Assembly: GCA_964352425.1 (NCBI GenBank)
Contig: CAYGRZ010000002.1
Coordinates: 18,240-82,239, forward strand
Reading direction: 5' to 3'
Source: an uncultured Planctomycetia bacterium
GTDB lineage: Bacteria; Omnitrophota; Gorgyraeia; 2-01-FULL-45-10
DNA: 64,000 bases
Shown here: positions 48,358 through 64,000 of the stretch, one piece after another
Layout: each line of letters opens with the position of its first letter
Numbering within the stretch: position 1 is the first letter of the stretch
Notes under the pieces: generated by a model
The model's database searches: none
Told to the model about the DNA's origin: nothing
What the model saw: the letters and a program-made list of their open reading frames with translations, nothing else
Made by a program: the position numbers and the translations under genes

Positions 48358-49656
48358 ATGGCAGGCACCATGCATCCCAAAATAGCGATCGTCGGCAGGC
48401 CCAATGTCGGCAAGTCGTCTCTTTTCAACAGGATCGTCGGCTCGCGGAAAGCCATCGTCGAATCCACCTGCGGCACTACGCGCGACAGGCTCTACGCCGA
48501 TATCGCCTGGAAGGGCAAGTCCTTCACGATCGTCGATACGGGCGGTTTTGAGCCGGCCGGGCGCGATGATATCACCCGGCTCGTCTTCAAGCAGCTTCAC
48601 ACCGCGATCGAAGAGGCGGATATCATCTTCCTTGTCACGGACGTTACCGCCGGCGTAGCGCACCTCGACAGGGAACTTGCCGAGACCCTCAGGAAGACGT
48701 CGAAGCGCATCTATTGTATCGTGAACAAGGCCGATGACCACTCGAGGGCTGCCCAGGCGGCGGAATTCTATGAGCTTGGCCTCGGCGAGCCGCAGGTCGT
48801 ATCGGCGACGAACGGCACGGGCATCGAGCGGCTGCTCGATGAGGTGGCCAGGGGCATTGAAAAGAGCATGCCTGCGGGCACGCCGGCGTCGGTCAAGGTC
48901 GCCATTGTCGGGCGGCCGAACGTCGGCAAGTCGTCGTATCTAAATTCCGTTTTCATGGAAGACAGGGTGATCGTCCATCCGGTCCCCGGGACGACGAGGG
49001 ACGCCGTCGATACCGATTTTGACTACAAAGGCAGGCACTATGTGCTGATCGACACGGCAGGCATACGCCATCACGCGAAGCTAAGCGAGTCAGCCGATTT
49101 CTACGGAAGCGTCCGCTCGAAAGAGGCGATACGGCGCGCCGACGCGGGCCTCGTGATGATCGACGGTTTCGACGGGTTGAGGGAAGACGACCAGCGCATA
49201 ATAAATTTCGTCATCGATGAAGGCAGGGCGCTCGTCATAGCGGTCAATAAATGGGACCTGACGAAAGGCGTCGAGATGTCGAAGTACACCGAGATGCTCA
49301 TCAAGAAGCTGAACATCATAAAAAACTATCCCGTCGTCTTCATTTCCAGCACAACGAGACGCAACGTCCTGGCGTGCCTCGACGCGGTATGGGCGGCGTA
49401 TGAGCGGTCGAAATTGATAATTGCTCCCGCAGAGCTTAAGGAATTCCTGAAGTCGTTAAACGCCGCTCCGGAGGTAATGCGCAAAAGGCTACAGTTCCAT
49501 TACCTGGTCCAGGAGGGAGTCGAGCCTCCCGGTTTTGTCCTGGGCATCAAGCGCGCCGAAGCTTTGACCGAAAGCCTGAAAAGGTATATAGAGAATTTTT
49601 TCAGGGCATCACACGATTATGCCGGCGTGCCGATAAGGATACGGTACAGCAGCTAG
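48358..49656 (+). CDS. der: Ribosome biogenesis GTPase Der (EngA) with tandem GTPase domains
   Basis: Two G-domains (GRPNVGKSS repeated, DTGG/DTAG) and a KH-like C-terminus. 432 aa. Confidence 0.9.
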   Translation: MAGTMHPKIAIVGRPNVGKSSLFNRIVGSRKAIVESTCGTTRDRLYADIAWKGKSFTIVDTGGFEPAGRDDITRLVFKQLHTAIEEADIIFLVTDVTAGVAHLDRELAETLRKTSKRIYCIVNKADDHSRAAQAAEFYELGLGEPQVVSATNGTGIERLLDEVARGIEKSMPAGTPASVKVAIVGRPNVGKSSYLNSVFMEDRVIVHPVPGTTRDAVDTDFDYKGRHYVLIDTAGIRHHAKLSESADFYGSVRSKEAIRRADAGLVMIDGFDGLREDDQRIINFVIDEGRALVIAVNKWDLTKGVEMSKYTEMLIKKLNIIKNYPVVFISSTTRRNVLACLDAVWAAYERSKLIIAPAELKEFLKSLNAAPEVMRKRLQFHYLVQEGVEPPGFVLGIKRAEALTESLKRYIENFFRASHDYAGVPIRIRYSS

Positions 49657-49755
49657 CGTAAAAGATCGGTGCTCACCGCTTCCGGGGAGCGTCTTCGAAC
49701 GTATTTGACTTTCCACAAAAAAAGAGGTACCCTTTAGATCATACAGGGAGGTCGT

Positions 49756-50061
49756 ATGGATAAGAAGAATGGTTTCATCAATGATGCGGTGGTCGTAGCG
49801 GTAGGCCTGGCGGCGCTCGTCTTTATTGCCGTGTGGGTCATCAATGCCAACGCCGAATATTATAAGCAGGCGGTGAGCGCGGCGGAGGCGACAAACGAAA
49901 CGCTGATGCAGCAGCGGGACGTTGTGATAAAAAAACTTATGCGGCTGGCGGATGCCAGGCAGGCGGAGCTGGCCGGCGCCAGGAAGAACGTGGAAATCGC
50001 CAGGGCAGAGCTTGACGCGTCAAAGAAAAAAATAGAAAACATCAAAGCGATCGTGCAATAG
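49756..50061 (+). CDS. Hypothetical membrane-anchored coiled-coil protein
   Basis: One TM helix then a helical segment. GGAGG RBS. Terminator downstream. Confidence 0.45.
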   Translation: MDKKNGFINDAVVVAVGLAALVFIAVWVINANAEYYKQAVSAAEATNETLMQQRDVVIKKLMRLADARQAELAGARKNVEIARAELDASKKKIENIKAIVQ

Positions 50062-50082
50062 CCGCGCCCCGCTCATATAAAC

Positions 50083-50127
50083 CTTCGCCGACCGGAGTTT
50101 TGGTCGGCGGAGGTTTTTTATTTTTTG
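50083..50127 (+). terminator. Rho-independent terminator
   Basis: Stem CCTTCGCCGACC/GGTCGGCGGAGG then TTTTTTATTTTTT. Confidence 0.6.
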
Positions 50128-50165
50128 TCCCTCGGCACGAAGCTCGAAAAAATTTCTAACGGGGC

Positions 50166-50194
50166 TTGGGATTTAGTGTCTTCGGGAGTATAAT
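50166..50194 (+). promoter_or_regulatory. Conserved promoter cassette copy (TTGGGA-17-TATAAT, spacer ending TTCGGGAG); predicted leaderless transcript for the archaemetzincin-like gene
   Basis: GCTTGGGAtttagtgtcTTCGGGAGTATAAT. The ATG at 50202 lies 7-8 nt after the -10. Confidence 0.5.
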
Positions 50195-50201
50195 CTGAAG
50201 T

Positions 50202-50861
50202 ATGAAGATAACGAAGCCGGCATCGATACTTTTATTATTCTCACTGCAGCTGTGTATTCCCGATACGGGCCTGGCGAGGTCGGTCGACGAGCGTGTCTAC
50301 ATTGTCCCGGCGGGGCCGGTTGACCGGAAGATTATCAAGACACTAAAAGAGCGGCTTCCCGGCTGCCTGCCGATGGCCGTCAAAGCAGTGATCGAGCCGC
50401 CCAAAGACCTCCCCCACGCCGCGTACGATGAGGCGCGCAAACAATATAATGCCGAAACGATGCTGGATGTGCTCTCCAAGCGGGTCGTCATAGGTGAGGC
50501 GATGGAGCGGGCGCTTTTTGTCGTCGACGTTGACCTTTATTCGCCCGGCCTGGACTCAGTCTGCGGCCTGGCTGACCCGAAGAAGGGTGTGTGCATCATA
50601 TCGCTGGCACGCCTCAGGAACGAGTTTTACGCCCTGTTGCCCGACAGCAGGCTCTTTATCGACCGGGCGGTGAAAGAAGCGGTCCGCGAGCTGGGCCGCA
50701 CGTACGGTATCGACGGGTGTCCGGATCACCGGTGCGTGATGTTCTCTTCCGGCACTCTTCGGGACAACGATAAGAAGAGGGATACATTCTGTGTCGAGTG
50801 CCGGATAAAATTGCGCAAGCGGTATGGCGGCTCGATCATCGGGCCGGTGCTGCCGAAATAG
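50202..50861 (+). CDS. Archaemetzincin-family homolog with all three zinc-binding His substituted (predicted inactive), C4 zinc-ribbon retained
   Basis: Motif reads AVRELGRTYGIDGCPDHRCVMFSS...FCVECRIKL where archaemetzincins have HExxHxxGxxHCxxxxCxM...CxxC. His1 becomes R, His2 becomes R, His3 becomes D. Confidence 0.6.
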   Translation: MKITKPASILLLFSLQLCIPDTGLARSVDERVYIVPAGPVDRKIIKTLKERLPGCLPMAVKAVIEPPKDLPHAAYDEARKQYNAETMLDVLSKRVVIGEAMERALFVVDVDLYSPGLDSVCGLADPKKGVCIISLARLRNEFYALLPDSRLFIDRAVKEAVRELGRTYGIDGCPDHRCVMFSSGTLRDNDKKRDTFCVECRIKLRKRYGGSIIGPVLPK

Positions 50862-50874
50862 GGATACGTCGTCC

Positions 50875-51948
50875 ATGAAGAAGCGGATACTGTTGTATGT
50901 CCTGTGCGCGCTGCTGGCCTCTCCGGTCGCTGCGAGATGCGATGAGCCGGCGCGCCGCGGCCTCTTTGTCACGGTGCTGCAGGAACCTCAGGTGCTTTCG
51001 AGCCGCGAGGAGATCGGGAAGCTGGTCGATTTCGCGAAAAGGGCCCGTATCAATGTCATCTTCGTGCAGGTCTATTACGCGAACAGGGCGTGGTTTCCTT
51101 CGAAGACCGCGGACCGGAGGCCGTATGAGAGTTGCGTAAAAAAACTGTCAGCCGACCCTCTCCGGCTTCTTATTACACAGGCCCATGGCGCGGGGATAGG
51201 CGTACATGCCTGGATGAATATGTTGAGCCTGGGCGATAATAAGGACGCCCGGCTCCTCAAAAAATACGGGACCGGCATCCTGACGAGGAACCTGAAAAAG
51301 AAGAAGGCGATCGAAGATTATAAGATCGACGGCCAGTATTTTCTCGAGCCCGGCGATACGCGGGTCCGCGAGGAGCTTTTGAACGTGGCCGAGGAGATCG
51401 TCCGCGCCTATCCCGGCCTGGACGGGATCCAGTTCGATTATATCCGTTATCCGGACCAGCATCCGGCGTACGGCTATGCGGATATGAATGTCGAACGTTT
51501 CAAAAAGGCGACCGGCCTTACCGCGATCGATGAGAAAGGCAGGGCCTGGCAGGGCTGGAAACGGGCCCAGGTGACGGGGCTCCTCGAACAGCTTGCCGAA
51601 AGGGTGCGCTCGGTCCGTCCGGGCATCGAGGTATCGGCGACGGGGTGCATGCCGTACTCGCGCGCGTATCTCGAAGCATTCCAGGACTGGCCGTCCTGGC
51701 TCGAGCGCCATCTCGTGGATTTCGTAACGGTGATGGGCTATTCCCCGGATCCCGCGGAACTGAAGCGATGGATCGCGGCCGCAAAAAGCAAGACGGCGGA
51801 CTTCAGGAAAGTGACCATAGGCCTCGGCGCGTATAAACTGGTGCGCTTGCCGGAGGTGTTCGAGCGTGAATTCCGTATCTGCGAGGAAGCCGGCGCCGGA
51901 GGCTACGCTATCTTCCATTACGGCAGCCTGCTTAAGATGAAAAGATGA
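50875..51948 (+). CDS. GHL10 (glycoside hydrolase-like family 10, YngK/YddW-type) protein
   Basis: Signal peptide then a TIM-barrel-like region typical of GHL10 proteins (RGLFVTVLQEP...INVIFVQVYYANRAWFPS). ATG at 50875. Confidence 0.55.
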   Translation: MKKRILLYVLCALLASPVAARCDEPARRGLFVTVLQEPQVLSSREEIGKLVDFAKRARINVIFVQVYYANRAWFPSKTADRRPYESCVKKLSADPLRLLITQAHGAGIGVHAWMNMLSLGDNKDARLLKKYGTGILTRNLKKKKAIEDYKIDGQYFLEPGDTRVREELLNVAEEIVRAYPGLDGIQFDYIRYPDQHPAYGYADMNVERFKKATGLTAIDEKGRAWQGWKRAQVTGLLEQLAERVRSVRPGIEVSATGCMPYSRAYLEAFQDWPSWLERHLVDFVTVMGYSPDPAELKRWIAAAKSKTADFRKVTIGLGAYKLVRLPEVFEREFRICEEAGAGGYAIFHYGSLLKMKR

Positions 51949-51967
51949 CAGCACGCACGCGCCATTA

Positions 51968-52654
51968 ATGACAAAGGCCCGCATGAAGAAGATCGAGATC
52001 GAGAAGATAGTCCGTTCGAAGCGCAGGACCGTCGCGCTCGTTATCACGAGGGATGCGACGCTCGTCGTCCGCGCCGGTTTGCATACGCCCACCACATTCA
52101 TCGAAGACCTGGTGCTAAAGAAGAGCGCCTGGATAACGCGGAAGATCGCCGAAGTGGCCGGACGGCCGAAGCCGTTTCCCAGAAAATTTGCGGATGGCGA
52201 GCACTTCCCGTACCTGGGGAATACCTATCCTCTTGCAATTGTCGATGATACGGAAGCCCCGCTTTCGCTGGCGGACGGATTCATCATGTCGAGGCGCTCG
52301 CTCCCGGCGGCCAGGCAAGTCTTTGTCGGCTGGTACCGGGAGAAGGCGTGTGCGAAGATAAAGGAAAGGCTCGACCTGTATGCTTCCCTCTCCGGTATCA
52401 GGTACGGCAGGTGCACTATAACAGGCGCCCAGAGCCGCTGGGGATCGTGCACGGCAAGGAATACGGTTAATTTCAGCTGGCGCCTGATTCTGGCCCCGCT
52501 CCATGTGGTCGATTATGTCGTCGCACATGAGCTCGCGCATATCGAGCGGAAGGACCATTCGCGGCATTTCTGGAACAGGGTTAATGACATTTTCCCCGGA
52601 TACCGCGAAAGCGAGCAATGGCTGAAAGATCACGGCGATTCGCTGGGGCTGTGA
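51968..52654 (+). CDS. YgjP/DUF45-family metal-dependent hydrolase (annotated as M48-family metallopeptidase in some databases)
   Basis: HELAHIERKDHS zinc motif (HExxH) near the C-terminus. Confidence 0.7.
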   Translation: MTKARMKKIEIEKIVRSKRRTVALVITRDATLVVRAGLHTPTTFIEDLVLKKSAWITRKIAEVAGRPKPFPRKFADGEHFPYLGNTYPLAIVDDTEAPLSLADGFIMSRRSLPAARQVFVGWYREKACAKIKERLDLYASLSGIRYGRCTITGAQSRWGSCTARNTVNFSWRLILAPLHVVDYVVAHELAHIERKDHSRHFWNRVNDIFPGYRESEQWLKDHGDSLGL

Positions 52655-52737
52655 CGGATGAAAGAGGAGTCGGGGGCATTGAACTATTAATTAATAATGG
52701 TAGCTAATGCGGCGCCGTGCGCGGTATAATAATGCCG

Positions 52738-52893
52738 ATGGCGAAGAAGATAAAGACGCACAAGAAACACAGGGTATGCAGGATTCGCGGGTGCGAGCAG
52801 ATATTGAGCATATATAACGCAGACACCTACTGCCATGCCCATCAGATCACCAACGCGAGCCAGGTGCCCGTGCTGGCTAACGCCAGGAATTAA
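52738..52893 (+). CDS. Possible small zinc-finger protein (51 aa)
   Basis: ORF MAKKIKTHKKHRVCRIRGCEQ...YCHAHQ with a CxxxxC...CxH pattern. A TATAAT at 52724-52729 ends 9 nt before the ATG, so a leaderless transcript is possible. Speculative. Confidence 0.25.
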   Translation: MAKKIKTHKKHRVCRIRGCEQILSIYNADTYCHAHQITNASQVPVLANARN

Positions 52894-52942
52894 GCCTGCG
52901 CCACGTACTATGACTTCAGGCATATCCCGAGCATATTTTCGC

Positions 52943-52971
52943 TTGGGATTTTGTATGCGCCGCCCATAGTA
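52943..52971 (+). promoter_or_regulatory. Degenerate copy of the conserved promoter cassette (TTGGGA-17-ATAGTA)
   Basis: CATATTTTCGCTTGGGATTTTGT is nearly identical to the upstream half of the 53313 copy. The -10 is weak. Confidence 0.3.
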
Positions 52972-53088
52972 CTGTGATTTTACCATAGTGGAAAAATGTC
53001 AGAAAAAAGTGGATTTAGCATCTATACAATGGATGAGGCCGGTGTAAAATATACGTGGAGACAAGCTTCTTAAATAGGGGAGGTCAGT

Positions 53089-53271
53089 ATGGCCGGAAAA
53101 ACCAAAGCGATAAACGCAGTGGACGAGTTTCTTTCATTGGCATGGATCTTCCTGTTGAGCGTAGTGGTCGTGAAAGACAACACGGCCTGGGGGGTAATGG
53201 CGTCGGCGGCGATCTTTGTCGCCTGTTATCTGATCTTCTTGGCGGCGCGCTTTATCTTCATGAGAAAATAG
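53089..53271 (+). CDS. Small hydrophobic membrane protein (60 aa)
   Basis: GGGAGG RBS. Two predicted TM helices. Confidence 0.3.
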   Translation: MAGKTKAINAVDEFLSLAWIFLLSVVVVKDNTAWGVMASAAIFVACYLIFLAARFIFMRK

Positions 53272-53312
53272 TCAGGCGAGACTGCACACTGGAAATCCCA
53301 GGCGAATTTTCG

Positions 53313-53341
53313 CTTGGGATTTTGTGTGTTCGGGAGTATAA
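53313..53341 (+). promoter_or_regulatory. Conserved promoter cassette copy (TTGGGA-17-TATAAT) upstream of the PilZ-glgB unit
   Basis: CGCTTGGGAttttgtgtgTTCGGGAGTATAAT. An inverted repeat AAATCCCAGG/CTTGGGATTT overlaps the -35. Confidence 0.5.
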
Positions 53342-53401
53342 TCCTTGACATATGGCCCTGATGGCATATGGAAGCTAACGCGCATTTTTTAGGAGGAGAG
53401 T

Positions 53402-53923
53402 ATGGTTAATTTTAATATTGAGCGGAGAAAGTACCTGCGGTATGACACGGAGATGAAAGTGTATTTTCGTGTCAAGTACGATATCGAGACGAGGGTCAAG
53501 TTCAAGGTCCTGGAAGACGAGACCGAGCACAAATATTCCGGGTTATGCAAGAATGTGAGCGTCGAAGGTCTCTGTTTTGTCTCGAAGAAGAAATTGAATG
53601 TAGGCGACCTGCTGCTGCTCGAGGTCTATGAGCCGATCATCAAGGGCCCCGTCGTCATGGAGGGGCAGGTCAGGTGGAGCAGGAGGCTCCCCGGCGAAGA
53701 CGGCGCGGAAGACGTCTACCACACGGGCGTCAGGCTCGTCCTGGTGAATGGAAAGTCGGTCCCGGATTCCATCCATCTTGATAGTAAATACAAGGTCGCC
53801 TGGAGCATCGTCCTGGACTCTTTGTTCGGCAATTTCGCGGCGATGGTGCGGAAGCTTAAAAAAAGGAAATGGGGCAGGGCCCGCGCGGTATCGCCCCGCA
53901 AGGGCAACAAGCAGGCGAGATAG
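53402..53923 (+). CDS. PilZ domain protein
   Basis: RxxxR (RRKYLRYD) and NxSxxG (NVSVEG) motifs. AGGAGG RBS. Immediately upstream of glgB. Confidence 0.6.
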
Positions 53924-53936
53924 GACGCCTGCATAT

Positions 53937-55871
53937 ATGAGCCAACCGGTAATGCACGGGCCGACGTTATTCAGCGAATTTGACATTCATCTTTTCAGGG
54001 AAGGCAGCCACCACCGCCTCTACGAAAAGCTCGGCTCTCACCTGATGGCCGTGAAGGGGACGCTCGGCGTCTACTTTGCCGTCTGGGCTCCCAACGCCGA
54101 ATATGTTTCGGTCGTCGGAGACTTTAACGGCTGGGATACGCTCTCGCATCCTCTCGCCGTGCGGTGGGACGGTTCGGGCATCTGGGAGGGCTTCATCCCC
54201 GGCATAGGCAAGGGGACGCTCTACAAATATTATCTGCGTTCAAAATTCAACGGTTATACCGTCGAGAAGGGCGACCCGTTCGCGCTGTACTGGGAAGCGC
54301 CCCCGAAGACCGCCTCGGTGGTCTGGGACCTCGAATACAAATGGAATGACCGCGCCTGGCTTGACAAGCGAGCGCAGCGTAACAGCCTCGATTCACCGAT
54401 GTCCGTATATGAAGTCCATCTTGGGTCGTGGAAAAGGATACCCGATGAAGGCAACCGCCGCCTCACGTACCGGGAGCTCGCCCCGCAGCTCGCCGATTAC
54501 GTAAGCCAGATGGGATTCACGCATGTGGAATTGATGCCCGTCATGGAGCATCCGTTCTACGGCTCATGGGGATACCAGATCTGCGGGTATTTCGCGCCGA
54601 GCCACCGCTACGGGACGCCGCAGGATTTCATGTACTTCGTCGACTATCTCCATAAGAAAGGGATAGGCATCATCCTCGACTGGGTGCCGTCGCATTTCCC
54701 CGGCGACGAGCACGGCCTCGCCTATTTTGACGGCACGCACCTCTACGAGCACGCGGACCTGCGCAAGGGTTTCCAACCCGACTGGCACAGCTTCATCTAT
54801 AATTACGGCCGCAACGAGGTGCGCAATTTCCTCATCTCGAACGCGATGTTCTGGTGCGACAAGTACCATGCCGACGCCCTCCGGATCGACGCCGTCGCCT
54901 CGATACTCTATCTCGATTATTCCAGGAAGACGGGCGAGTGGATCCCGAACCAGTTCGGCGGCCGGGAGAATCTCGAGGCGGTGGGCTTCCTCAAAAAACT
55001 GAATGAGAGCGTGTACCACGATTTCCCGTCGGTCCAGATGATCGCGGAGGAGTCGACCGCGTGGCCGATGGTCACCAAGCCCACCTACCTGGGAGGGCTG
55101 GGGTTCGGGATGAAGTGGAATATGGGATGGATGCACGACACGCTCGAGTACATGTCGAAAGACCCCGTCTTCCGCAAGTATCACCACGGCACGTTGACGT
55201 TCAGCCTGCTGTACGCGTTCACGGAGAACTTCATGCTCCCGCTGTCCCACGACGAATGCTCCCACGGCAAAGGGTCGCTCTTAAGCAAGATGCCGGGCGA
55301 CCACTGGCGGAAATGCGCGGGGCTGCGCCTTCTCCTGGGATACATGTGGATGCACCCGGGCAAAAAACTCCTCTTCATGGGCGGGGAATTCGGGCAGGCC
55401 CAGGAGTGGCAGCATGACCAGAGCCTCGACTGGCACCTCCTCCAATATCCCGAGCACGCGGGGATCCGGCGCTGGGTGAGCGACCTTAACAATTTCTATA
55501 AAAATGAGCCGGCGCTCTATGAGGTCGATTTTTCATATGACGGGTTTGAATGGATGGACGTGAATAATTACGAGGAGAGCGTCATCTCGTTCCTCAGGAA
55601 GAGCCGGTCTCATCCGTCAGAGACGGTGCTTGCGGTGTGCAATTTTACGCCGGTGCCGAGGTACAATTACCTTGTCGGCGTCCCGTTCGACGGTTTCTGG
55701 AAAGAGGTATTGAATAGCGACGCGCACGAGTACGGCGCCAGCGGCCAGGGTAATATGGGCGGCCGCGAAGCTGCCCCTACGCCATGCCACGGAAAGCCTT
55801 TCTGCCTGTCGCTGACGCTCCCGCCGCTGGGCATCGTGGTCCTGAAGCGCCAGGCGACGAGGGAGAAATAA
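53937..55871 (+). CDS. glgB: 1,4-alpha-glucan branching enzyme
   Basis: CBM48 N-terminal region ([23 protein letters not shown]) and GH13 catalytic motifs (DWVPSHF, GFDGFRFDAV-like [16 protein letters not shown]). 644 aa from the ATG at 53937. Confidence 0.9.
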
Positions 55872-55925
55872 TTTGACAAAGCGCGCCGGGGGGCATATTG
55901 TAATGAAACCCAACAAGGAGGAACG

Positions 55926-56423
55926 ATGAGATATTTATATGCGGTAGTGATGCTGGCCTCAGGGCTTTTATTCGGTATCACAGAGGCGCTCTCGGCAGAT
56001 GCGGCCATACACAACGGCAGCAAGGTCGCGTTCGCCTACACGCTCACCGTCGACGGCAAGGTCGTCGACACGTCGGAAGGAAGGACGCCGCTTGAGTATA
56101 CCCAGGGTGACGGCAAGATGATCCCGGGACTGGCCAAACAGCTGGAAGGATTGAGGGCCGGCGACGAGAAGAGCGTCGTATTGAAGCCGGAAGAGGCGTA
56201 CGGCAGCCCCAATCCGGCCGCGATCAGAGAGATCCCGCTGTCGCAGCTGCCGTCACAGCCCAAGCCTCAGGTGGGGATGATGCTGCAGGTCCAGAATAAA
56301 CAGGGCCGGGTCTTTCCCGCGCGGATCACCGATATAAAGGATGACAAAGCTCTCATAGACTTAAACCACCCGCTGGCGGGTAAGACGCTGAACTTCAAGG
56401 TCAAGATCGTTTCGGTGACGTAG
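55926..56423 (+). CDS. FKBP-type peptidyl-prolyl cis-trans isomerase (SlyD/FkpA-like, secreted)
   Basis: Signal peptide. FKBP core (VAFAYTLTVDGKVVDTS...GKMIPGLAKQLEGLRAGD...LAGKTLNFKVKIVSV). Confidence 0.75.
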   Translation: MRYLYAVVMLASGLLFGITEALSADAAIHNGSKVAFAYTLTVDGKVVDTSEGRTPLEYTQGDGKMIPGLAKQLEGLRAGDEKSVVLKPEEAYGSPNPAAIREIPLSQLPSQPKPQVGMMLQVQNKQGRVFPARITDIKDDKALIDLNHPLAGKTLNFKVKIVSVT

Positions 56424-56458
56424 AAACCGCCGGCCGTAAAGTCTCAGGCATATTTTGC

Positions 56459-56487
56459 TTGGGACTTTTTGTTTTCGGGAGTATAAT
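56459..56487 (+). promoter_or_regulatory. Conserved promoter cassette copy (TTGGGA-17-TATAAT) upstream of the lipoprotein-nitrilase-MBL-AsmA operon
   Basis: CATATTTTGCTTGGGACtttttgtTTTCGGGAGTATAAT. Confidence 0.5.
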
Positions 56488-56528
56488 TCTGGTAGCACAC
56501 CGGTACCGTTATCAAGAAGGGAGAAAAA

Positions 56529-56957
56529 ATGAGAGCACGTAACTGCAGCGTGATGGTGGTAGTGCTGGCCCTGGCGGCCATGGGCATGGGCGGGTGCGCG
56601 ACCCCCGGTGACTGGGCCAAAGAGATAATCGGTGTTTCGACCAGGCCGATCGAGGACGCAAGGCCGGGCGCCCTCGTCAAGGTGTTCGAGAGCGGCTACA
56701 AGGCCTGCTACGAAAAGACGGAAGCCGTGCTGAAAAAGATGTCGCATGTCTCGATCTATGCGAAGACCGACGTGATGATCGCCGTCTACTGGACGCGCAT
56801 CAACACCACGCCCGTCGGGGTCTTCTTCACGCAGGTGGACGCGTCCCACACGAAGGTCGAGGTGGCGTCCCCGAGCACGACCGGCAAGGAGTGGGTGGCA
56901 CAGAACGTTTTTGCGGGAGAAGCGCTGGCCGAGGCGCCGCTCCAGAAATTCGATTAA
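56529..56957 (+). CDS. Hypothetical lipoprotein
   Basis: Signal peptide with a lipobox-like AAMGMGGC. 142 aa. Confidence 0.45.
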   Translation: MRARNCSVMVVVLALAAMGMGGCATPGDWAKEIIGVSTRPIEDARPGALVKVFESGYKACYEKTEAVLKKMSHVSIYAKTDVMIAVYWTRINTTPVGVFFTQVDASHTKVEVASPSTTGKEWVAQNVFAGEALAEAPLQKFD

Positions 56958-56963
56958 CCGGCT

Positions 56964-57767
56964 ATGAAGCTGACGATATCGGTAGCGCAAGTCAGGGTGG
57001 CGCAGTCGAGGCCCGAAGAGAACCTCCGGAAGGGAGAGTCGCTCATCGCCGAGGCCGCGCGCAGGAAGAGCGGCCTCATCTGCTTCCCCGAGATGTGGAC
57101 GACCGGTTTCAATTGGGCGGAGAACGAGCGCCGCTCGCGCGACCACGAGAAGACGATCGACCGCATCGGCGGGCTGGCGAAGCGTTACGGGATCTGGGTG
57201 AGCGGATCGACGCTTGCCTTAAACGAGCAGGGCACGGTATCGAATACGCATATCCTGTTCGGCGCCGACGGCAACAGGAAGGGCACCTACCGCAAGGCGC
57301 ACCTCTTCAGCATGCTCCATGAGGAGCGGCATGTCACCGCCGGCAACACCCTGTCGGTCGTCGATACGCCGTGGGGCCCGACGGGACTGGCGGTCTGTTA
57401 CGATATCCGCTTTCCCGAGCTCTTCCGCTCCTATGCCCTGATGGGCGCCAGGATCATACTCTCACCGATGGCCATGCCCCACCCGAGGCTGGAGCACTGG
57501 AAGGTGCTCGTGCGCGCCCGCGCGATCGAGGACCAGCTCTATATGGTCGGGGCGAACCAGGTGGGCAGCGAAGACTTCGGCCCCGGCAACACCCTGACCT
57601 ATTTCGGCCACTCATGCATCATCGATCCCTGGGGCGAGACGGCCGCCGAGGCGGGCGAGACGGAAGAGCAGCTCATTACCGCGACCGTCGACCTCGCGCG
57701 CGTCGACGATATCCGCGCGAAGATGCCGGTCCTGAAGGACCGCCGGCCGGAACTGTACGGCTTATGA
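56964..57767 (+). CDS. Carbon-nitrogen hydrolase (nitrilase superfamily, omega-amidase-like)
   Basis: Catalytic E-K-C triad context (CFPEMW, RKAHLF, LAVCYDIRFPE). Confidence 0.8.
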   Translation: MKLTISVAQVRVAQSRPEENLRKGESLIAEAARRKSGLICFPEMWTTGFNWAENERRSRDHEKTIDRIGGLAKRYGIWVSGSTLALNEQGTVSNTHILFGADGNRKGTYRKAHLFSMLHEERHVTAGNTLSVVDTPWGPTGLAVCYDIRFPELFRSYALMGARIILSPMAMPHPRLEHWKVLVRARAIEDQLYMVGANQVGSEDFGPGNTLTYFGHSCIIDPWGETAAEAGETEEQLITATVDLARVDDIRAKMPVLKDRRPELYGL

Positions 57768-58504
57768 AAATAACTTTCCTCGGGACGAACGGATGGTATG
57801 ACACGGAGACGGGGAATACCCCCTGTGTCCTCGCCGAGACCGGCGAGCAGTATATCGTCTTCGACGCCGGCTTCGGGTTCCGCAAGGTAAAAGATATCGT
57901 CATCACCGAAAAACCGGTCCTTCTCTTCATCAGCCACCTCCATCTCGATCATCTGATCGGCCTCCACACGCTGCCGCTCTTCAAGTTCAGGCAGGGCATC
58001 GACATCTACGCGCCGAAAGGCATCATCGGCGGCCTTCGCGGTTTCCTGAAGAGGCCGTTCACGTCGCCGCCGCTCATGCTCCGGACCAAACTGCGCTTCC
58101 ATACCTTAGGCGGCAAGGAGGGCTTGCCGTTCGCGTTCGAGATGAGGAAGCTGCGCCATTCCGTGCCGTGTTACGGCTACCGCCTCGAACTTGAGGAGGG
58201 GACGCTTGCCTACTGCACCGATACCGGCGTGTGCGCCAACTTAAAGCGCTGTGCCGCCGGCGCGGACCTCCTCATCACCGAATGCGCGATGAGGCCGGGA
58301 GATACATCGCCGAACTTTTTCCACCTTACGCCCGAGAGCGCCGCGAGGGCCGCGCGCGAGGCGCCCGCGAGGATGCTTGCACTCTTCCATTTTGATCCGG
58401 GCAAGTATCCGACGTTTGACCGCCGCAGGGAAGCGGAGGCCGCCGCGAGGAAAATCTTCCCGGACACGGTCGCCGCGAACGACGGGACCGTCATCGAGAT
58501 CTAA
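57764..58504 (+). CDS. MBL-fold metallo-hydrolase (RNase Z/BN-like)
   Basis: HLHLDH motif. 246 aa. Start overlaps the previous stop. Confidence 0.7.
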   Translation: MKITFLGTNGWYDTETGNTPCVLAETGEQYIVFDAGFGFRKVKDIVITEKPVLLFISHLHLDHLIGLHTLPLFKFRQGIDIYAPKGIIGGLRGFLKRPFTSPPLMLRTKLRFHTLGGKEGLPFAFEMRKLRHSVPCYGYRLELEEGTLAYCTDTGVCANLKRCAAGADLLITECAMRPGDTSPNFFHLTPESAARAAREAPARMLALFHFDPGKYPTFDRRREAEAAARKIFPDTVAANDGTVIEI

Positions 58505-58505
58505 T

Positions 58506-60290
58506 ATGAAGAAAGCGCTGATAATAGCGGCTATCCTTATCGTCCTGGCCCTGGCGGCGCTGGCGGTATTCATCCTCACATTCGATATCAACAGGTACAA
58601 AGACGCGCTCGCCTCGCAGCTTGAGTCGGTGACGGGTAATCCCGTCGAGATAGGCGCTCTCGCGCTCTCCTGGAAAGGCCAGATCGTCATGGAGGTCGAT
58701 ACCTTCAGGATATGCGACCGCCAGACCCGCGAGACGCTGCTGTCGTTCGAGGCAGCGAACGCCACAGTCCAGCTCATACCTCTTCTCCAGAAACGTTTTG
58801 AGATCTCATCGATATCCCTGACCCGTCCGATGCTCCACATCATCCGGACGAAGGACGGCCGGATAGAGGTGCTCGGCTATACCCCGAAGCCGGAGGCCGC
58901 CGCCGAACAAGGTCCTGCAGCCCGAGCCGCGAAGCAGGCGGTTGTTGCCGGGCCGGCGCTTGCGCTCGATATCGCCGCGTTCGATATACGGCAGGGCACG
59001 CTCAGGTTCCAGGACATGATGATCGATCCTCCGTCGGATGTGACGGTGCAAAGCGCCGACATTTCCGTGAAGAACATCTCTCTTACCCGCCCGGTCAGCT
59101 TCAATGCTGTGATGGCTCTCGCCGGGAAAGCGCAGAACATCTCCGCATCAGGCACTGCCGGCGGGTTCGCGATACGGCAGCCGTACTTAAAGGATTTTAA
59201 CGGCCGCTTCGATCTCGGGACTATCGGATACGACGAACTCATGAAAGCCCTTCCGCAGCTTCGCGCGGCGGGAGTGCGCGAAGGGGTGAGGGGTGTCCTT
59301 ACCCTGAAAGTGCGGGACCTCGCGTTCGCAGATAATAAGATCTCAAAGTTATCCGCCGACGTGACATTCGTCGATGGCCGCCTCGCACTCACGCAACTGC
59401 GCACGCCGCTCGAGAACATGGACCTGACCGCATCGATAGAGGGCGATACGATGACGGTGAAGTCCTTCTCCGGCACTCTTGCGAACGCGGGCATGAAGGG
59501 TTCCGGCAGGATAGACGGGATATCTGCCGCGCCGAGAACGACCCTCCAGACCACGATGGAGATCCGCGGGCTTAAGAAGTTCCTGGCGACGATGGCAGCC
59601 TCCGACCAGACGATCGACGGAAACTTAAAGATCACGTTTGACGGAACGGCGGCGGGATCGGCGTGGGAAGATATCTCGAGGACGCTTGCCGGTACGGGAA
59701 CGCTCACGCTCGATAGGGGCATGATCATCAACAGCAATATGATGCGGCAGGCGCTGGGCTCGCTCACGCTCTTCCCGGGACTTGCCGACGCGGTGCAGTC
59801 TGCCGCGCCCGAACTGCGGCAGCCGATGAACCAGAATTACACGCTCCTGAGATCGTTCAGCCAGTCCTATAGAGTGGAAGGCAGTTACATCATACTGCCG
59901 GAATTATATATCGCGACCGACTTTTTTGACCTGCGCGGCACGGCGAAGGTATCGTTCACCGGCGACCTTTCGGGCAGTGGCCTTATCCGTTTCGCGCCGC
60001 AGATCTCCGGCCGGATGATCGCCATTCTTCCGCAGATGCAGTATCTTGCCGACGGCCAGGGCCTCGTCGGGTTCCCGATAGCCTTCAAGGGGGGTGGTGG
60101 CGGCTTCAAGGTGATACCGGATATGAATTATATCGCGCAGAAGGTCGCTGTCCAGACGGCGCAGGACGCGCTGGCGGATCTCCTGACCAAGTCGGGCGGG
60201 AAGAAAGAAGGAGCCGGGGCCGCTCCTGCCGGGCAGACGAAAGCGCCCAAGATCAAGGATCTGCTGAAGGCGTTGATGAAAGAAGAGTAG
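58506..60290 (+). CDS. AsmA family outer-membrane assembly protein
   Basis: N-terminal TM anchor then a long beta-rich periplasmic domain. C-terminal AsmA-like region. Confidence 0.65.
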   Translation: MKKALIIAAILIVLALAALAVFILTFDINRYKDALASQLESVTGNPVEIGALALSWKGQIVMEVDTFRICDRQTRETLLSFEAANATVQLIPLLQKRFEISSISLTRPMLHIIRTKDGRIEVLGYTPKPEAAAEQGPAARAAKQAVVAGPALALDIAAFDIRQGTLRFQDMMIDPPSDVTVQSADISVKNISLTRPVSFNAVMALAGKAQNISASGTAGGFAIRQPYLKDFNGRFDLGTIGYDELMKALPQLRAAGVREGVRGVLTLKVRDLAFADNKISKLSADVTFVDGRLALTQLRTPLENMDLTASIEGDTMTVKSFSGTLANAGMKGSGRIDGISAAPRTTLQTTMEIRGLKKFLATMAASDQTIDGNLKITFDGTAAGSAWEDISRTLAGTGTLTLDRGMIINSNMMRQALGSLTLFPGLADAVQSAAPELRQPMNQNYTLLRSFSQSYRVEGSYIILPELYIATDFFDLRGTAKVSFTGDLSGSGLIRFAPQISGRMIAILPQMQYLADGQGLVGFPIAFKGGGGGFKVIPDMNYIAQKVAVQTAQDALADLLTKSGGKKEGAGAAPAGQTKAPKIKDLLKALMKEE

Positions 60291-60299
60291 CCGCAGCGG

Positions 60300-62069
60300 C
60301 TACCGGAGCTGGCGGCGCATCCGCCAGATCTTCCTGATCGACTCGAAGAATATGATGACGACGAGCGCGGTCATGATTATGGAGAGTGTGGCGTTCAGGT
60401 TGCCCTGGAAGGTGTGTTTCGGCAGGTAATTTCCCGTCACGTTCTCGACGCCGGCCGCGACGGTCGTCACGAACATGAAGACCGCCGGGACGAACGTGAT
60501 GAGCCCGTAGGCCCGCCGCCGCGAATGTTTCAGGATATACACCGTCCCCACCGATAATGCCAGTGTCGCCAGGAGCTGGTTCGCCACCCCGAACATCGGC
60601 CAGATCGTCGTGATGTCGCCGTTAAAGACCAGGTATCCCCACAGGAAGCTTATCGCCCCGCCGCTTAAGATTATCGCCGGTAGTTTCGTGCTCTTCCACC
60701 TCGGCAGGCCGAGCTTGATCAGCTCGTCGACGATATACCGCGCCACGCGCGTGCCCGTGTCGACGGTGGTGAGGATAAAAAGCGCCTCGAACATGATGGC
60801 GAAATGGTACCAGTAGCCCATGAGGCCCTTCATGCCGGGGATGGATGAGAGTATGAGCGACATGCCCGCCGCAAGCGAGACCGCCCCTCCCGTCCTGCCC
60901 GCGAGCGTCTCGCCCGCCATCCGCTCGAGATCCGCAAGCTGCGTCACATTGAACCCGAGCTTATGGAACACCTCGACGGGAACGTTGATCGCGAAATAAT
61001 CGCCCGGCAGGAGCACCGTCGCGGCAATGAGCGCCATGACCGACACGACCGCCTCGACGAGCATCGCGCCGAACCCGAGCATCCGGATATCCGATTCCTT
61101 GTTGATCATCTTCGGCGTCGTGCCGGAAGCGACGAGTGAGTGAAAGCCGCTTATGGCGCCGCAGGCTATCGTGATGCAGACGAACGGCCAGACCTTGCCC
61201 GGTATGATCGGCCCGCCGCCGTGGATATAGGGCGTCACAGCGGGCATCTTCAGCTGCGGGTTCACGATAAAGATGCTTACCGCAAGGAGCGCGATCGTCC
61301 CGATCTTCATGTATGAGCTTAAGTAATCGCGCGGGCACAGGAGGAGCCACACCGGCAGTACCGACGCGATGAAGCCGTAGACGGGGAGGATGACCGACAG
61401 TGTGGGACGCGAGAAGAGGAAAAAGTGGCCGAGGGAAGATCTCGCCAGCGGTTCGCCCAGGACGACGCCGATGAGAACTATCGCGACGCCGATGATCGAC
61501 GCCTCGACGACCCTGCCCGGCCGAAGGCGGTACATGTATAACGCCATCATTAGTGCCGCCGGTATCGTCATCGCGATGGTGAATGTCGCCCACGCGCTCT
61601 CGCAGAGCGCGTTCACTACGACGAGCGCCAGTCCCGCCAGCGCCGTGACGATGATGAAGAGGATCGCGAACCCCGTTATGACGCCGGCCGTCTTCGACAC
61701 GTTTTTTCTGGCGAGCCTGGTGAGCGACAGGCCCTTCGTCCGCACGGAGGCGAAGAGGATCACCATGTCATGGACCGCGCCCCCGATGACGGCGCCGATC
61801 AGTATCCAGAGGAACCCCGGCAGGAAACCGAACTGCGCGGCCAGCACCGGGCCGACGAGCGGGCCGGCGCCCGATATCGCCGCGAAATGGTGGCCGAAGA
61901 GGACATAGCGGTTCGTGGGGTGGTAGTCCCTGCCGTCCTTGAATGTATGGGCGGGCGTCCGGATCCGGTCATTGGCGACCAGCACCTTCGTGATGATGAA
62001 TTTCGCGTAAAATCGGTACGCCAGCGCGAATACGAGCATGGCGACCACGAGCAATGTCAGGGCGTGCAT
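60300..62069 (-). CDS. cstA: Carbon starvation protein A (peptide/pyruvate transporter family)
   Basis: N-terminus [25 protein letters not shown]...[23 protein letters not shown] is highly characteristic of CstA. 589 aa, polytopic. Confidence 0.9.
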
Positions 62070-62346
62070 AGATGAATAAGGTAATGTAAAACGGGGCCGG
62101 TGTCAAGAATTCTTGCGGTTACTTGCCGCCGGCTAAAGGATCGCGAAAATCTTCCGGGTCCTGCCGCTCGGTCGCCTTTCGGCGCTTGCGCGGGGTTCAC
62201 AATTAACACGCTGACAGGCGGGTGTCTGTACTGCCCCATCCCGCGCTTCGCGCCTCAAGGCTGGACCGAGCGTCACCCGTAAGATTTTCGCTTGCATATG
62301 GTGATAGCCGCAATGCCCAAAAGTTCCGCCGCCCATTCCCCTTAAG

Positions 62347-62635
62347 AAAGATTTTCGGCTTTCGTAGAGTAACGGAACTTTCGGATGCGTGCCGCATCAA
62401 ACCAAGCCCGGAGGCCTGGGTGTTGAGCGGGGCCTAAAAATTGCGAGCGGGCATGGATTTTTAGCCCTTGATACCTATTACATGCTAAAAAGAGCGAGCA
62501 ATTTTTCGGAGTGTGGTTTTCCTCGCAGGGGAAAACCACACGTCCACGCGAGGCACCCAGGCCGCAAGGGCTTGCTCTACTATGTGCAAGGCACCTCCCG
62601 AAAGTAAACGCTCTCAAGAAGCCGAAAATCTTTCC
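62347..62635. repeat. ~290-bp element bounded by perfect 15-bp terminal inverted repeats (AAAGATTTTCGGCTT / AAGCCGAAAATCTTT) with nested internal inverted repeats; candidate structured RNA or MITE-like element
   Basis: Outer IR 62347-62361 / 62621-62635. Nested IR CAAGCCC..GGCCTGGGTG (62402-62422) / CACCCAGGCC..GGGCTTG (62548-62568). Internal 12-bp hairpin GTGTGGTTTTCC-tcgcag-GGGAAAACCACAC at 62511-62541. Confidence 0.5.
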
Positions 62636-62650
62636 CTCCCATGTTTTTGC

Positions 62651-62679
62651 TTGGCGTTTTCGCCTCTGGGGGTTATAAT
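62651..62679 (+). promoter_or_regulatory. Conserved promoter cassette variant (TTGGCG-17-TATAAT) for the Cache sensor gene
   Basis: TTTTTGCTTGGCGttttcgcctctgggggtTATAAT, followed by a GAGGG RBS and the ATG at 62699. Confidence 0.5.
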
Positions 62680-62698
62680 TATTGCACAAAGAGGGCTC

Positions 62699-64000
62699 AT
62701 GAAACGATCAAAAACCGTTCGAACGGTACGCGTGATACTCCTGACGCTGTGCGCGGCAAGTTTTATCCTCGTCGCCGGGCAGGCATGTTTCTACATGACT
62801 TCCTTGAACGAGCTCTCGCGTTCGGCCGACACCATCATGTCGATAGAAGCGACACGGGCCGTCGAGCAGCTCACCGTGCAGCTTCGCAAGGCCGGCCCCG
62901 CGGGCCTCACGCCCGACGCCCTTGCCGATATCTGCGGCTCTTTCAGGTTCGGCGATACCGGCTACGGATATCTCCTGTCCCGCGACGGAAAGTTCCTCTA
63001 CCATCCGATACATGACGCCGTCGAGTCGCAGAGGACGATATTCGAGATCCTCTCGGAGCGCAAAACACCGCAGGCCGAGAAGATCATCGATGTCACCAGG
63101 AAGGCGCTGGCCGGCCACGCCGTCTCGCACGACATCACTAATCCCGAAACAGGCCAGCATTTCAGGCTGCTGTACCGCCCGGTCGCGGATACGGGCTGGG
63201 TGCTCGCCGCGGTCTTTTCGAAAGACGAGATGTCTGCCGACGGCGGGTTCCTGCGCAGGATGAAGATGTGGGCGGCGCTCTGGCTCGTCCTGTTCCTTAC
63301 GCTCTCCATCGCTGTGCTCGTCCGCGTCTATGAGATGGAGCCGTGGAAGCTCTGGCTGATCGCCGCCACGTTCTCCATCATGAGCGCGCTCGGCGCGCTC
63401 TTCATCTGGTACCTGACGCTCTCGGCGCCGCTCATAGAAGAGAAGGACAAGCTCATCTTTAACGACACGGTCTCGCTCAAGGCGTTCGTCAACGACCACT
63501 CGAGGACGATGCTGCGTCTCGGCAAGAGGCCGCCCGCCTACATACCCACCGGCATCTATATACAGTCGCTCGAATTCACCGGCGCCAACGACCTTGATGT
63601 GACGGGCTATGTCTGGCAGCACTACACCGACGGCCTCCATGACGCCGTCACGCGGGGTTTCATAATGCCGGAGGCGCGCGACCTCACCGTAAAGGAAGCC
63701 TACCGGCGCAAGGCAGGCACAACCGAGGTCATAGGCTGGTATTTCGAGGCGGTCATACGCCAGCGGTTCGATTATTCGAGGTATCCGTTCGACAGGCCGA
63801 ACATATGGATATGGCTGCGCCCCTCGGACTTCGCGAATAATGTCGTCCTCGTGCCGGACCTCGCCGCATACAAATTCCTGGCACCCTCCTCGCTGCCGGG
63901 GCTGCAGGAAGAGGTGGCACTCCCCGGCTACACATTTCTCGGAACGTTCTTTGACCGCGAATTCCATCTCAGGCGGACCAATTACGGCATGCAGCTCCGG
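62699..64000 (+). CDS. Cache (dCache-like) domain sensor protein, N-terminal part; partial, runs off the window end
   Basis: Read manually. Signal/TM helix, GYGYLLSRDGKFLYHP Cache motif, second TM (LWLVLFLTLSIAVLV), further periplasmic region. Absent from the ORF track because no stop lies inside the window. The 419-aa minus-strand ORF 62708-63967 is judged a shadow. Confidence 0.6.
   Translation, partial: MKRSKTVRTVRVILLTLCAASFILVAGQACFYMTSLNELSRSADTIMSIEATRAVEQLTVQLRKAGPAGLTPDALADICGSFRFGDTGYGYLLSRDGKFLYHPIHDAVESQRTIFEILSERKTPQAEKIIDVTRKALAGHAVSHDITNPETGQHFRLLYRPVADTGWVLAAVFSKDEMSADGGFLRRMKMWAALWLVLFLTLSIAVLVRVYEMEPWKLWLIAATFSIMSALGALFIWYLTLSAPLIEEKDKLIFNDTVSLKAFVNDHSRTMLRLGKRPPAYIPTGIYIQSLEFTGANDLDVTGYVWQHYTDGLHDAVTRGFIMPEARDLTVKEAYRRKAGTTEVIGWYFEAVIRQRFDYSRYPFDRPNIWIWLRPSDFANNVVLVPDLAAYKFLAPSSLPGLQEEVALPGYTFLGTFFDREFHLRRTNYGMQLR

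Follow-up and report, generated by a model that had tools for sequence, protein, structure and literature searches.

A conserved promoter-like cassette of Omnitrophota that appears to share base pairs with the terminator of the preceding gene

Results

A promoter-like cassette recurs before unrelated genes

The stretch of DNA analysed here, 64,000 nucleotides of contig CAYGRZ010000002.1 (hereafter the window, with a guanine-plus-cytosine (GC) content of ~57%), comes from an uncultured bacterium of the phylum Omnitrophota and carries, within 12.5 kb, five copies of a short element resembling a sigma70-type promoter, termed here the cassette. Sequence reading and pattern search together returned three exact matches to CTTGGGA-N12-GGGAGTATAAT, all on the plus strand (copy 1, 50165-50194; copy 2, 53313-53342; copy 3, 56458-56487), as well as one variant (copy 4, 62651-62679) and one degenerate copy (copy 5, 52943-52971). 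All five had been reported in a first-pass annotation and proved real at the sites given there, except that the -35 hexamer of copy 2 starts at 53314 rather than 53313. Upon shuffling of the window, the chance expectation for the pattern was 0.04, even with three mismatches tolerated, and a count of four matches at that tolerance was reached in 0 of 100 shuffles. A perfect -10 and a 17-bp hexamer spacing are present in four copies, the -35 hexamer being TTGGGA in copies 1-3 and TTGGCG in copy 4 (TTGGCG-N17-TATAAT with GGGGGT before the -10, reading TTGGCG...GGGGGTTATAAT); copy 5 has a 20-mer, ATTTTCGCTTGGGATTTTGT, in common with copy 2 and is without a good -10. Conservation extends beyond both hexamers, as first noticed, and its limits can now be drawn more closely: the upstream element ATTTTCGC, described as conserved, is exact in copies 2 and 5 only (copy 3 has ATTTTGC, copy 4 GTTTTTGC and copy 1 TAACGGGGC), and the spacer end TTCGGGAG holds in copies 1-3 and fails in the others.

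The genes downstream begin 7-59 nt 3' of the cassette and belong to transcription units that are indeed unrelated. According to Pfam, copy 1 precedes Peptidase_M54 (followed by GHL10 and YgjP-like genes), copy 2 precedes PilZ (53402, followed by glgB), and copy 3 precedes a lipoprotein gene followed by CN_hydrolase. For the lipoprotein-nitrilase-MBL-AsmA unit proposed at copy 3, Pfam thus supports the nitrilase and synteny with two relatives (L019 and L027; loci outside the window are cited by such L numbers) supports MBL and AsmA, whereas the lipoprotein family was not recognised. The "Cache sensor" proposed at copy 4 is a membrane sensor that resembles Cache proteins weakly, with its ATG at 62699 and only sub-threshold dCache matches in Pfam; the gene upstream of this copy, cstA, is divergent. 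Positions of the copies and of neighbouring small features are collected in Table 1.

Table 1 Cassette copies and adjacent small features of the window
Feature	Position	Strand	Composition
Classical intrinsic terminator 5' of copy 1 (predicted)	50079..50126	+	17-bp stem followed by TTTATTTTTT; serves an upstream 101-aa open reading frame (ORF)
Copy 1, promoter-only	50157..50194	+	-35 TTGGGA 50166-50171; spacer TTTAGTGTCTTCGGGAG; -10 TATAAT 50189-50194
Small ORF, not in the ORF list	52738..52893	+	51 aa, Cys/His-rich; read from the sequence
Copy 5	52924..52971	+	Hairpin ATCCCGAGC/loop/GCTTGGGAT 52924-52949, then TTTGTATG; -35-like TTGGGA 52943-52948; degenerate -10
Small ORF, not in the ORF list	53089..53271	+	60 aa, hydrophobic; preceded by Shine-Dalgarno-like GGGGAGG
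Copy 2, full cassette	53293..53342	+	Hairpin AAATCCCAGGCG/AATTTT/CGCTTGGGATTT 53293-53322; -35 53314-53319; T-rich 53320-53330; GGGAG 53332-53336; -10 53337-53342
Copy 3, full cassette	56438..56487	+	Hairpin AAAGTCTCAGGC/ATATTTT/GCTTGGGACTTT 56438-56468, tail TTGTTTT; -35 56459-56464; -10 56482-56487
Copy 4, promoter-only variant	62642..62679	+	TTGGCG 62651-62656; N17 ending GGGGGT; TATAAT 62674-62679; position weight matrix score 34.6

The inverted repeat over the -35 has the features of a terminator hairpin

An inverted repeat over the -35 had been noted in two copies; it is present in three (copies 2, 3 and 5; Table 1) and reads as a predicted sense-strand RNA hairpin, an interpretation missed at first. 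The hairpin, found in about half of all copies across genomes, consists of a 5' arm, (A)AATCCCARGC, joined through 7-9 nt of A/T-rich loop to a 3' arm, GCTTGGGAT(TT), and is directly followed by the T-rich stretch that had been listed as the conserved spacer. When the first 20 copies were folded, 10 gave stabilities of -16 to -24 kcal/mol; the sense strand was the more stable by 3.5-8.5 kcal/mol in 7 of these 10, and an antisense advantage never exceeded ~1 kcal/mol. Within the window, the predicted energies are -21.4 kcal/mol for copy 2, -17.9 (sense) versus -9.7 (antisense) for copy 3 and -16.5 (sense) versus -10.9 (antisense) for copy 5, and copy 1 forms no stable hairpin (-8.4 kcal/mol).

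Pairing is maintained across the family. Thirteen copies with a hairpin were aligned, and of the 117 cells that make up the nine core base pairs, 116 are paired; 11 of the cells are G.U or U.G, and double (compensatory) changes number three. Over the entire helix, pairing amounts to 88.5%, a value that falls to ~57% once the 3' partner is slid by one column. Copy 3 has a compensatory G-C at alignment columns 8/33, and the lower stem is compensated in different ways in different copies (AAAG.../...CTTT in copy 3, CAGG.../...CTG in L020, AAGT/ACTT in L017).

The position of the hairpin is equally consistent. In the window, hairpins start 14, 21 and 30 nt past a co-directional stop codon (copies 3, 2 and 5, respectively; for copy 3, that of an FKBP gene at 56423), and hairpin-bearing copies elsewhere always stand behind a co-directional ORF. 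Copies without a hairpin have a separate upstream terminator (copy 1), T-runs (L002, L011) or a divergent neighbour (copy 4). The separate terminator of copy 1 lies ~50 nt 5' of it, takes the top rank in a terminator scan of the window and is retained in L021 along with the copy itself; its presence may be the reason why copy 1 has no overlapping hairpin. The same scan flags two of the three cassette hairpins, those of copy 3 (as a 13-pair site) and copy 5. A search of the window against Rfam 15 yielded only a tRNA-Phe at the gathering threshold, and relaxing the cut-off to E<=1 over 49900-63000 brought up no relevant family.

The predicted structure therefore combines a stable G+C stem-loop and a U-rich tract between tandem genes, the combination by which promoter-coupled intrinsic terminators are recognised. 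Its geometry also conforms: the 3' arm holds TTGGGA, the T-run ends at about -18, and termination and start would be ~17-23 bp apart, both RNA ends being predicted. The flanks that were initially read as binding sites for a factor are thus conserved, as claimed, and the 5' flank and T-rich spacer largely coincide with the putative terminator hairpin and U-tract of the upstream gene.

The cassette is rare and distinct from other promoter-like sites

About 20 other TTG-N16-18-TAnnnT sites occur in the window (at 602, 11644, 36692 and 41508, among others), none with TTGGGA, a T-rich spacer or GGGAG, so that the four or five cassette copies form a distinct cluster among the sigma70-like sites of the window. 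Large sequence collections were then scanned with the exact pattern (18 specified bases), and no record yielded a second copy. Six stretches matched among 185,579 species genomes (one genome each), about four of which look genuine, and 13 among 241 million metagenome records, about eight of which look genuine; viral contigs scanned with the same pattern gave no match. Overall, ~12 of the 19 matching stretches represent the same element, as judged by features that were not searched for, namely a G before CTTGGGA, at least seven T in the 12-nt spacer and often an upstream inverted repeat. These genuine matches lie in metagenome-assembled genomes labelled Omnitrophota, in one each labelled "Nitrospirae" and "Planctomycetia", or in unbinned contigs, with GC contents of 36-59%. 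Seven stretches (L001, L006, L007, L009, L013, L014 and L016), the spacers of which are not T-rich, were set aside as chance matches.

For a sample unbiased by the motif, we took ~20-kb loci anchored on Der or PilZ from seven Omnitrophota genomes (~140 kb in total). A weight-matrix scan of these found one copy each in L020, L022 (weak) and L028, and no cassette copies in the loci L023, L025, L027 and L029, nor in L031. No copy occurs in 82 kb from four Omnitrophota genomes, which includes the regions upstream of rpsB-tsf and of the ATP synthase genes. Among 42 TTG-N16-18-TAnAAT sites in Omnitrophota DNA that fall outside the family, the -35 follows TTGA(c/a/g)n, and TTGGGA occurs in none; of nine occurrences of CTTGGGA in unselected sequence, six are followed by a T-rich spacer, a G-block and a TATAAT-like hexamer. 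Because the other sites never have TTGGGA while most CTTGGGA occurrences carry the whole framework, the cassette appears to be a discrete minority class of promoter-like elements and not the housekeeping consensus. The first-pass annotation had named, as the outcome that would undo its proposal, that the motif might turn out to be the general sigma70 consensus; this outcome is not borne out, as other promoter-like sites carry a different -35 and the cassette is rare in loci of the phylum.

Enrichment of G at -13 to -16 is also seen at non-family sites (36-40% G). A G-rich GGnG directly 5' of the -10 was observed at many of these (window positions 621, 40061, 44961 and 53041; L008, L002, L023 and L025), and GGnG in this place may be a general "extended -10" of Omnitrophota, unlike the classical TGn.

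The assignment to this phylum agrees with the neighbouring proteins: the Der GTPase adjoining copy 1 matched only Candidatus Omnitrophota/Omnitrophica proteins (the best at 91% and 73% identity), and PilZ behaves alike. A full-text literature search on Omnitrophota promoters found nothing relevant.

Copies are equally similar whatever their relationship

The cassette recurs in Omnitrophota-type metagenome-assembled genomes both at orthologous sites and before unrelated genes. Orthologous sites (for copy 2, those in L012, L020 and L030) are islands of conservation in otherwise unalignable intergenic DNA, even where PilZ is only 65% identical. Over a 51-nt core, copies 2 and 3 of the window are identical at 42 of 51 positions (82%), copy 2 and its own orthologs in L030 and L012 at 84%, and copy 2 and the copies that precede unrelated genes in 36-45% GC genomes at 78-84%; copy 5 is only 60-67% identical to other copies. 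This star-like pattern argues for long-term selection towards a consensus over recent duplication or transposition, since constrained positions are identical and the rest randomised, paralogs are no closer to each other than to distant copies, and orthologous sites are kept while their flanks cannot be aligned. The proposal that the cassette is a promoter-bearing mobile unit is weakened by the same figures, orthologous positions being kept at 65-91% protein identity.

The window shares synteny from 48358 to 62069 with L020, L027, L019 and L030 (Der, M54 peptidase, PilZ, GlgB, FKBP, CN_hydrolase, MBL, AsmA, CstA). The presence of small genes within this block (GGDEF, tpx, Zn-ribbon) varies, and gain or loss of promoters is seen at operon junctions. 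In L030, the copy-2 promoter sits before a GGDEF gene inserted ahead of PilZ-glgB, and the presence of this gene alongside PilZ-glgB ties the copy-2 operon to cyclic di-GMP (c-di-GMP) signalling. The 5' untranslated region (UTR) after copy 2 (window 53343-53401) begins CCTTGACATATGG, as does that of L030 from 2503, and in the window CATATGG occurs in it as a direct repeat. Copy 3 is followed by a 5' UTR (window 56488-56528) that reads TCTGGTAGCACACCGGTACCGTTATCAA, with a palindrome CGGTACCG, and is identical on the minus strand of L019 (2715-2757); there, a tpx gene (Redoxin/AhpC-TSA) is inserted ahead of the lipoprotein gene, so the first gene differs despite the identical UTR. This UTR may itself be functional.

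Promoter-only and terminator-only derivatives

In promoter-only copies (copy 1, L021, L008) as well as in hairpin-bearing ones (L012, L028), a start codon lies 6-9 nt past TATAAT; for copy 1, the Peptidase_M54 ATG is at 50202, 7 nt past the -10. An ATG at this distance would be difficult to account for if transcription started elsewhere, and the spacing is the pattern expected of leaderless mRNAs. In keeping with this spacing, no room is left for a Shine-Dalgarno sequence at window positions 50194-50202 and 52730-52738 or in L008, L012, L021 and L028. Leaderless mRNAs may thus be common in this lineage.

The reverse derivative was found in a close relative, L030, where the ortholog of copy 5 reads GTCCCAGG-loop-CCTGGGAT, then TTTTTTTG. 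Here the stem is kept by compensatory change (TCCCAGG/CCTGGGA) and followed by a T7 run; the -35 has lost its TTG, and a -10 is absent. This ortholog would be a plain terminator, and the promoter and terminator functions therefore look separable. In the window, copy 5 itself is probably mainly the terminator of the 51-aa ORF upstream, its -10 having decayed.

A route to promoter-only copies is seen in a second close relative, L019, where the ortholog of copy 3 has received a 170-bp insertion (2786-2953) exactly in the hairpin loop, which splits an orphaned 5' arm from a still-intact promoter. The insertion consists of three palindromic units (CCCGTTA(G/C)AAA / TTT(C/G)TAACGGG, with outer arms CCCCGTTAGAAAG / CTTTCTAACGGGG) resembling repetitive extragenic palindromic (REP) sequences. 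Its terminal 16-mer, TTTCTAACGGGGCTTG, is found next to copy 1 as well, both in the window (50153-50168) and in L021, which suggests either a repeat element that targets the hairpin or recombination between copies.

The 750-bp "intergenic" stretch 52655-53400 of the window contains two small ORFs that had not been listed (Table 1), each followed by a cassette hairpin. The first has a TATAAT (52725-52730) 7 nt 5' of its ATG, ends 30 nt before the copy-5 hairpin, is retained in L030 and gave only a sub-threshold CxC6 match in Pfam. The second has a candidate promoter of its own at 53023-53050, ends 21 nt before the copy-2 hairpin and is retained in L030 as a called 60-aa gene. Weaker, family-like second promoters were also observed on the short contigs L012 (888, minus strand, TTGAGA-ttttgcgctttcagagg-TATAAT) and L011 (778, GCTTGGGA-N16-TATAAT), each some hundreds of bp away from the main copy, much as copies 5 and 2 stand in tandem in the window.

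Discussion

We consider it probable, with moderate confidence, that the cassette is a lineage-specific, sequence-conserved sigma70-type promoter class of Omnitrophota, the full form of which is fused to the intrinsic terminator of a co-directional upstream gene. The observations beneath this reading are computational: the motif, its rarity and phylum-wide recurrence, the covariation of the hairpin, its place past stop codons and the spacing from -10 to ATG. From 5' to 3', a full cassette would consist of the C/A-rich arm (A)AATCCCARGC, a loop of 7-9 nt rich in A/T, the 3' arm GCTTGGGAT(TT) containing the -35 TTGGGA, a T-rich stretch (consensus TTGTTTT) serving as both U-tract and promoter spacer, GGG(A/G)G at -17 to -13, and TATAAT, such that one sequence would be both the 3' arm of the upstream terminator and an extended -35 for the promoter that follows. 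A polymerase coming in from the preceding gene would transcribe the hairpin and U-tract and terminate ~17-23 bp before the next start site, and a second polymerase would initiate 6-9 nt past TATAAT, leaving several downstream genes apparently leaderless. Copies 2, 3 and 5 of the window would be complete in this sense (copy 5, with its decayed -10, acting mainly as a terminator), and copies 1 and 4 would be promoters only.

The arrangement closely resembles the promoter-coupled intrinsic terminators described by Fletcher, Forrest, ... Grainger (August 2026) in A. baumannii, E. coli and B. subtilis and predicted in six more species (bioRxiv 10.64898/2026.08.19.745784). In that work, mutation of the T-tract or stem lowered the activity of the coupled promoter, and mutation or relocation of the promoter lowered termination efficiency (bioRxiv 10.64898/2026.08.19.745784). 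Because both signals use the same base pairs, promoter occupancy and read-in transcription should interfere at the cassette too, an interference shown experimentally for the coupled terminators of the three species named (bioRxiv 10.64898/2026.08.19.745784). Both systems place a stem-loop over the -35 of the following same-strand promoter and a T-tract in the spacer just 5' of the -10, with shared base pairs, in short intergenic regions between tandem genes, and both have a distance from termination to start of at most 35 bp (a predicted distance for the cassette). They differ in that the published stems are diverse, with only the T-tract and -10 emerging in sequence logos, whereas the cassette appears to have one stem (ATCCCARGC/GCTTGGGAT) and GGG(A/G)G fixed phylum-wide; its 5-nt G-block gives a predicted ~17-23 bp in place of ~10 bp; and the cassette family, known from sequence alone, includes promoter-only and terminator-only derivatives.

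Several points weigh against a coupled terminator-promoter. The predicted gap of ~17-23 bp exceeds the modal ~10 bp of coupled terminators, owing to the GGGAG block that intervenes between T-tract and -10. The copy-2 hairpin was not flagged by the terminator scan, and TGTGTGTTC, its tail, makes a poor U-tract. Statistical support for covariation is modest, the observed score being reached in 5-7 of 500 shuffles with many stem positions invariant, and an argument from the asymmetry of wobble pairs is weakened because an A/C-rich 5' arm turns simple transitions into wobble pairs. Both termination and initiation in Omnitrophota are inferred from sequence. Furthermore, approximately half of the copies have no hairpin and still keep GCTTGGGAT, the T-rich spacer and GGGAG, so terminator duty alone cannot explain the conservation of the sequence. 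Were RNA pairing the only constraint, the stem would be free to drift by compensation, as it has in the lower stem and in L030; a constraint at the level of DNA must therefore hold GCTTGGGAT and GGG(A/G)G. Candidate readers of the fixed sequence are a dedicated sigma70-family factor or co-factor, a monomer-binding regulator, and the housekeeping holoenzyme, for which a G/C-rich -35 variant would be forced by the needs of the stem and compensated by the G-block. Such compensation has a parallel in extended -10 elements (the TGn extended -10, and the -16 TRTG region of B. subtilis), which are likewise conserved blocks directly 5' of the -10 and could offset a non-consensus -35; the cassette differs in having GGG(A/G)G at -17 to -13 and not TG at -15/-14.

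The first of these readers leads to the alternative that survives best, a regulon in which GCTTGGGAT (-38 to -30) and GGG(A/G)G (-17 to -13) are read by an alternative sigma70-family factor, an activator or a repressor, and the downstream genes are co-regulated. We regard such a dedicated factor as a tentative possibility; it is compatible with terminator coupling and may even be the reason for the fixed stem. Retention of the right arm and G-block in hairpin-less copies, across genomes of 36-59% GC, favours it, as do the ~80% identity of copies whatever their relationship, which is expected of selection towards one recognition sequence, and the total lack of TTGGGA among the other 42 promoter-like sites, a hint of two discrete classes. 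Downstream genes point the same way at ~5 of 15 distinct loci, where they concern signalling (PilZ, GGDEF-PilZ in L030, an HD_5/HD-GYP-type protein in L022, OmpR-type and CheY-type response regulators, the Cache-like sensor), and stress or storage functions also appear (Tpx, a rubrerythrin-like protein, GlgB). Other downstream genes are a mixture, however (M54 peptidase, DNA methylase, TolC-like OEP, truB-ribF-rpsO-pnp, small membrane proteins), and a regulon is for this reason suggestive at most. In addition, a perfect TATAAT with a TTG-type -35 is a target for the housekeeping sigma, and the G-block may be partly phylum-general in view of the G-enrichment at non-family sites. A more elaborate version is unlikely: a dedicated sigma70-family factor or co-factor would recognise a discrete second Omnitrophota promoter class (GCTTGGGAT -35 region, T-rich spacer, GGG(A/G)G-TATAAT), which would have been co-opted as a standardised terminator-promoter module wiring genes biased towards signalling and stress (c-di-GMP proteins, response regulators, Tpx, rubrerythrin-like protein, GlgB), and would also be a preferred target for REP-like insertion.

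It is improbable that the cassette is a mobile promoter unit, that is, a ~50-bp hairpin-plus-promoter module copied to new intergenic sites in the manner of putative mobile promoters, REP sequences or miniature inverted-repeat transposable elements (MITEs). Putative mobile promoters are defined as stretches of 50 nt or longer, identical to 80% or more, that lie upstream of coding sequences not homologous to each other in one genome (Matus-Garcia, Nijveen, van Passel, NAR 2012; PMC3488235), and copies 2 and 3, at 82% over 51 nt before non-homologous genes, fall marginally within this definition. As with those promoters, similar non-coding stretches stand before non-homologous genes in one genome and sometimes across genera. 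Host genes also differ by genome (in L028 a cassette precedes truB and PilZ has none; M54 has none in L020 and L022 and copy 1 in the window), copies 2 and 5, 371 bp apart, alone share the 8-nt loop variant ATTTTCGC, and the 16-mer in the 5' flank of copy 1 recurs at the end of the REP-like insertion abutting the copy-3 ortholog of L019. Unlike in putative mobile promoters, though, the similarity of cassettes is limited to a functional core of ~50 nt, their orthologous positions are kept across 65-91% protein identity, and paralogs are not closer: the 82% within the genome stands against 84% for orthologs and 78-84% for distant copies, so recent mobilisation is not apparent, and variable positions look randomised, as in old copies under selection. 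REP and REPIN elements, too, are short imperfect palindromes just past gene 3' ends that can act as terminators or RNA stabilisers, and a genuine REP-like cluster (the CCCGTTA(G/C)AAA units) sits in the L019 hairpin loop. The cassette, in contrast, has a full promoter, low copy number (five in 64 kb here, 0-1 per 20 kb elsewhere), no REPIN-type clustering or doublets, no terminal repeats or target duplications around it, and no visible link to a transposase or REP-associated tyrosine transposase (RAYT); the high copy number, terminal repeats and RAYT or transposase association of REP, REPIN and MITE families were found neither over the 64-kb window nor in the relatives' loci.

We give slightly less credence still to the idea that the inverted repeat is no RNA hairpin and acts as the DNA operator of a dimeric transcription factor near -41.5 (a class II activator or a repressor with an overlapping site). 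The centre of the palindrome lies at about -42 from the predicted start site, and terminator palindromes can double as transcription factor sites, as for LexA at the yobI terminator/ruvA promoter. A dimeric operator should, on the other hand, have both half-sites conserved at a fixed spacing, which is not what was found: the distance between the arms varies (7-9 nt) and half of the family is without the 5' arm. Nearly every difference in that arm is compatible with G.U, compensatory pairs account for the changes in the lower stem, the copy-5 ortholog of L030 has changed both arms jointly (CCCAGG/CCTGGG), and the hairpin always comes behind the end of a co-directional gene and before a T-run.

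Finally, it is very improbable that the cassette represents nothing more than the general strong sigma70 consensus of the organism, without special meaning, since, for all its TTG at -35, 17-bp spacing and perfect TATAAT, and despite mild G-enrichment upstream of the -10 elsewhere, the TTGGGA, T-rich spacer and GGGAG are missing from roughly ten other promoter-like sites of the window and from the 42 across Omnitrophota loci, and no copy occurs in the 82 kb from four Omnitrophota genomes.

Other assignments were considered and rejected: a sigma54 promoter (no GG-N10-GC register), sigmaB/F- and sigmaH-like promoters (wrong spacing to GGG or GAAT), CRP/FNR-, CodY-, IHF- and DnaA-like sites (no match), and a divergent minus-strand promoter using the 5' arm (no -10 at the right distance in the copy 2 sequence).

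Taken as a promoter class fused to the upstream terminator, the cassette provides a concrete, testable model of promoter and terminator for an uncultured phylum, suggests leaderless mRNAs in Omnitrophota, and extends to an uncultured lineage the very recent idea that promoters and terminators are coupled. The coupled architecture as such is already known; what appears to be new is its sequence-fixed, phylum-wide form. As a compact unit of 50 bp, the cassette also offers a ready-made "insulated promoter" part. Ultimately, a dual-function element that is fixed across unrelated genes and distant genomes implies that something beyond RNA folding must read it, and if a dedicated factor exists, the motif would define its regulon directly from sequence.

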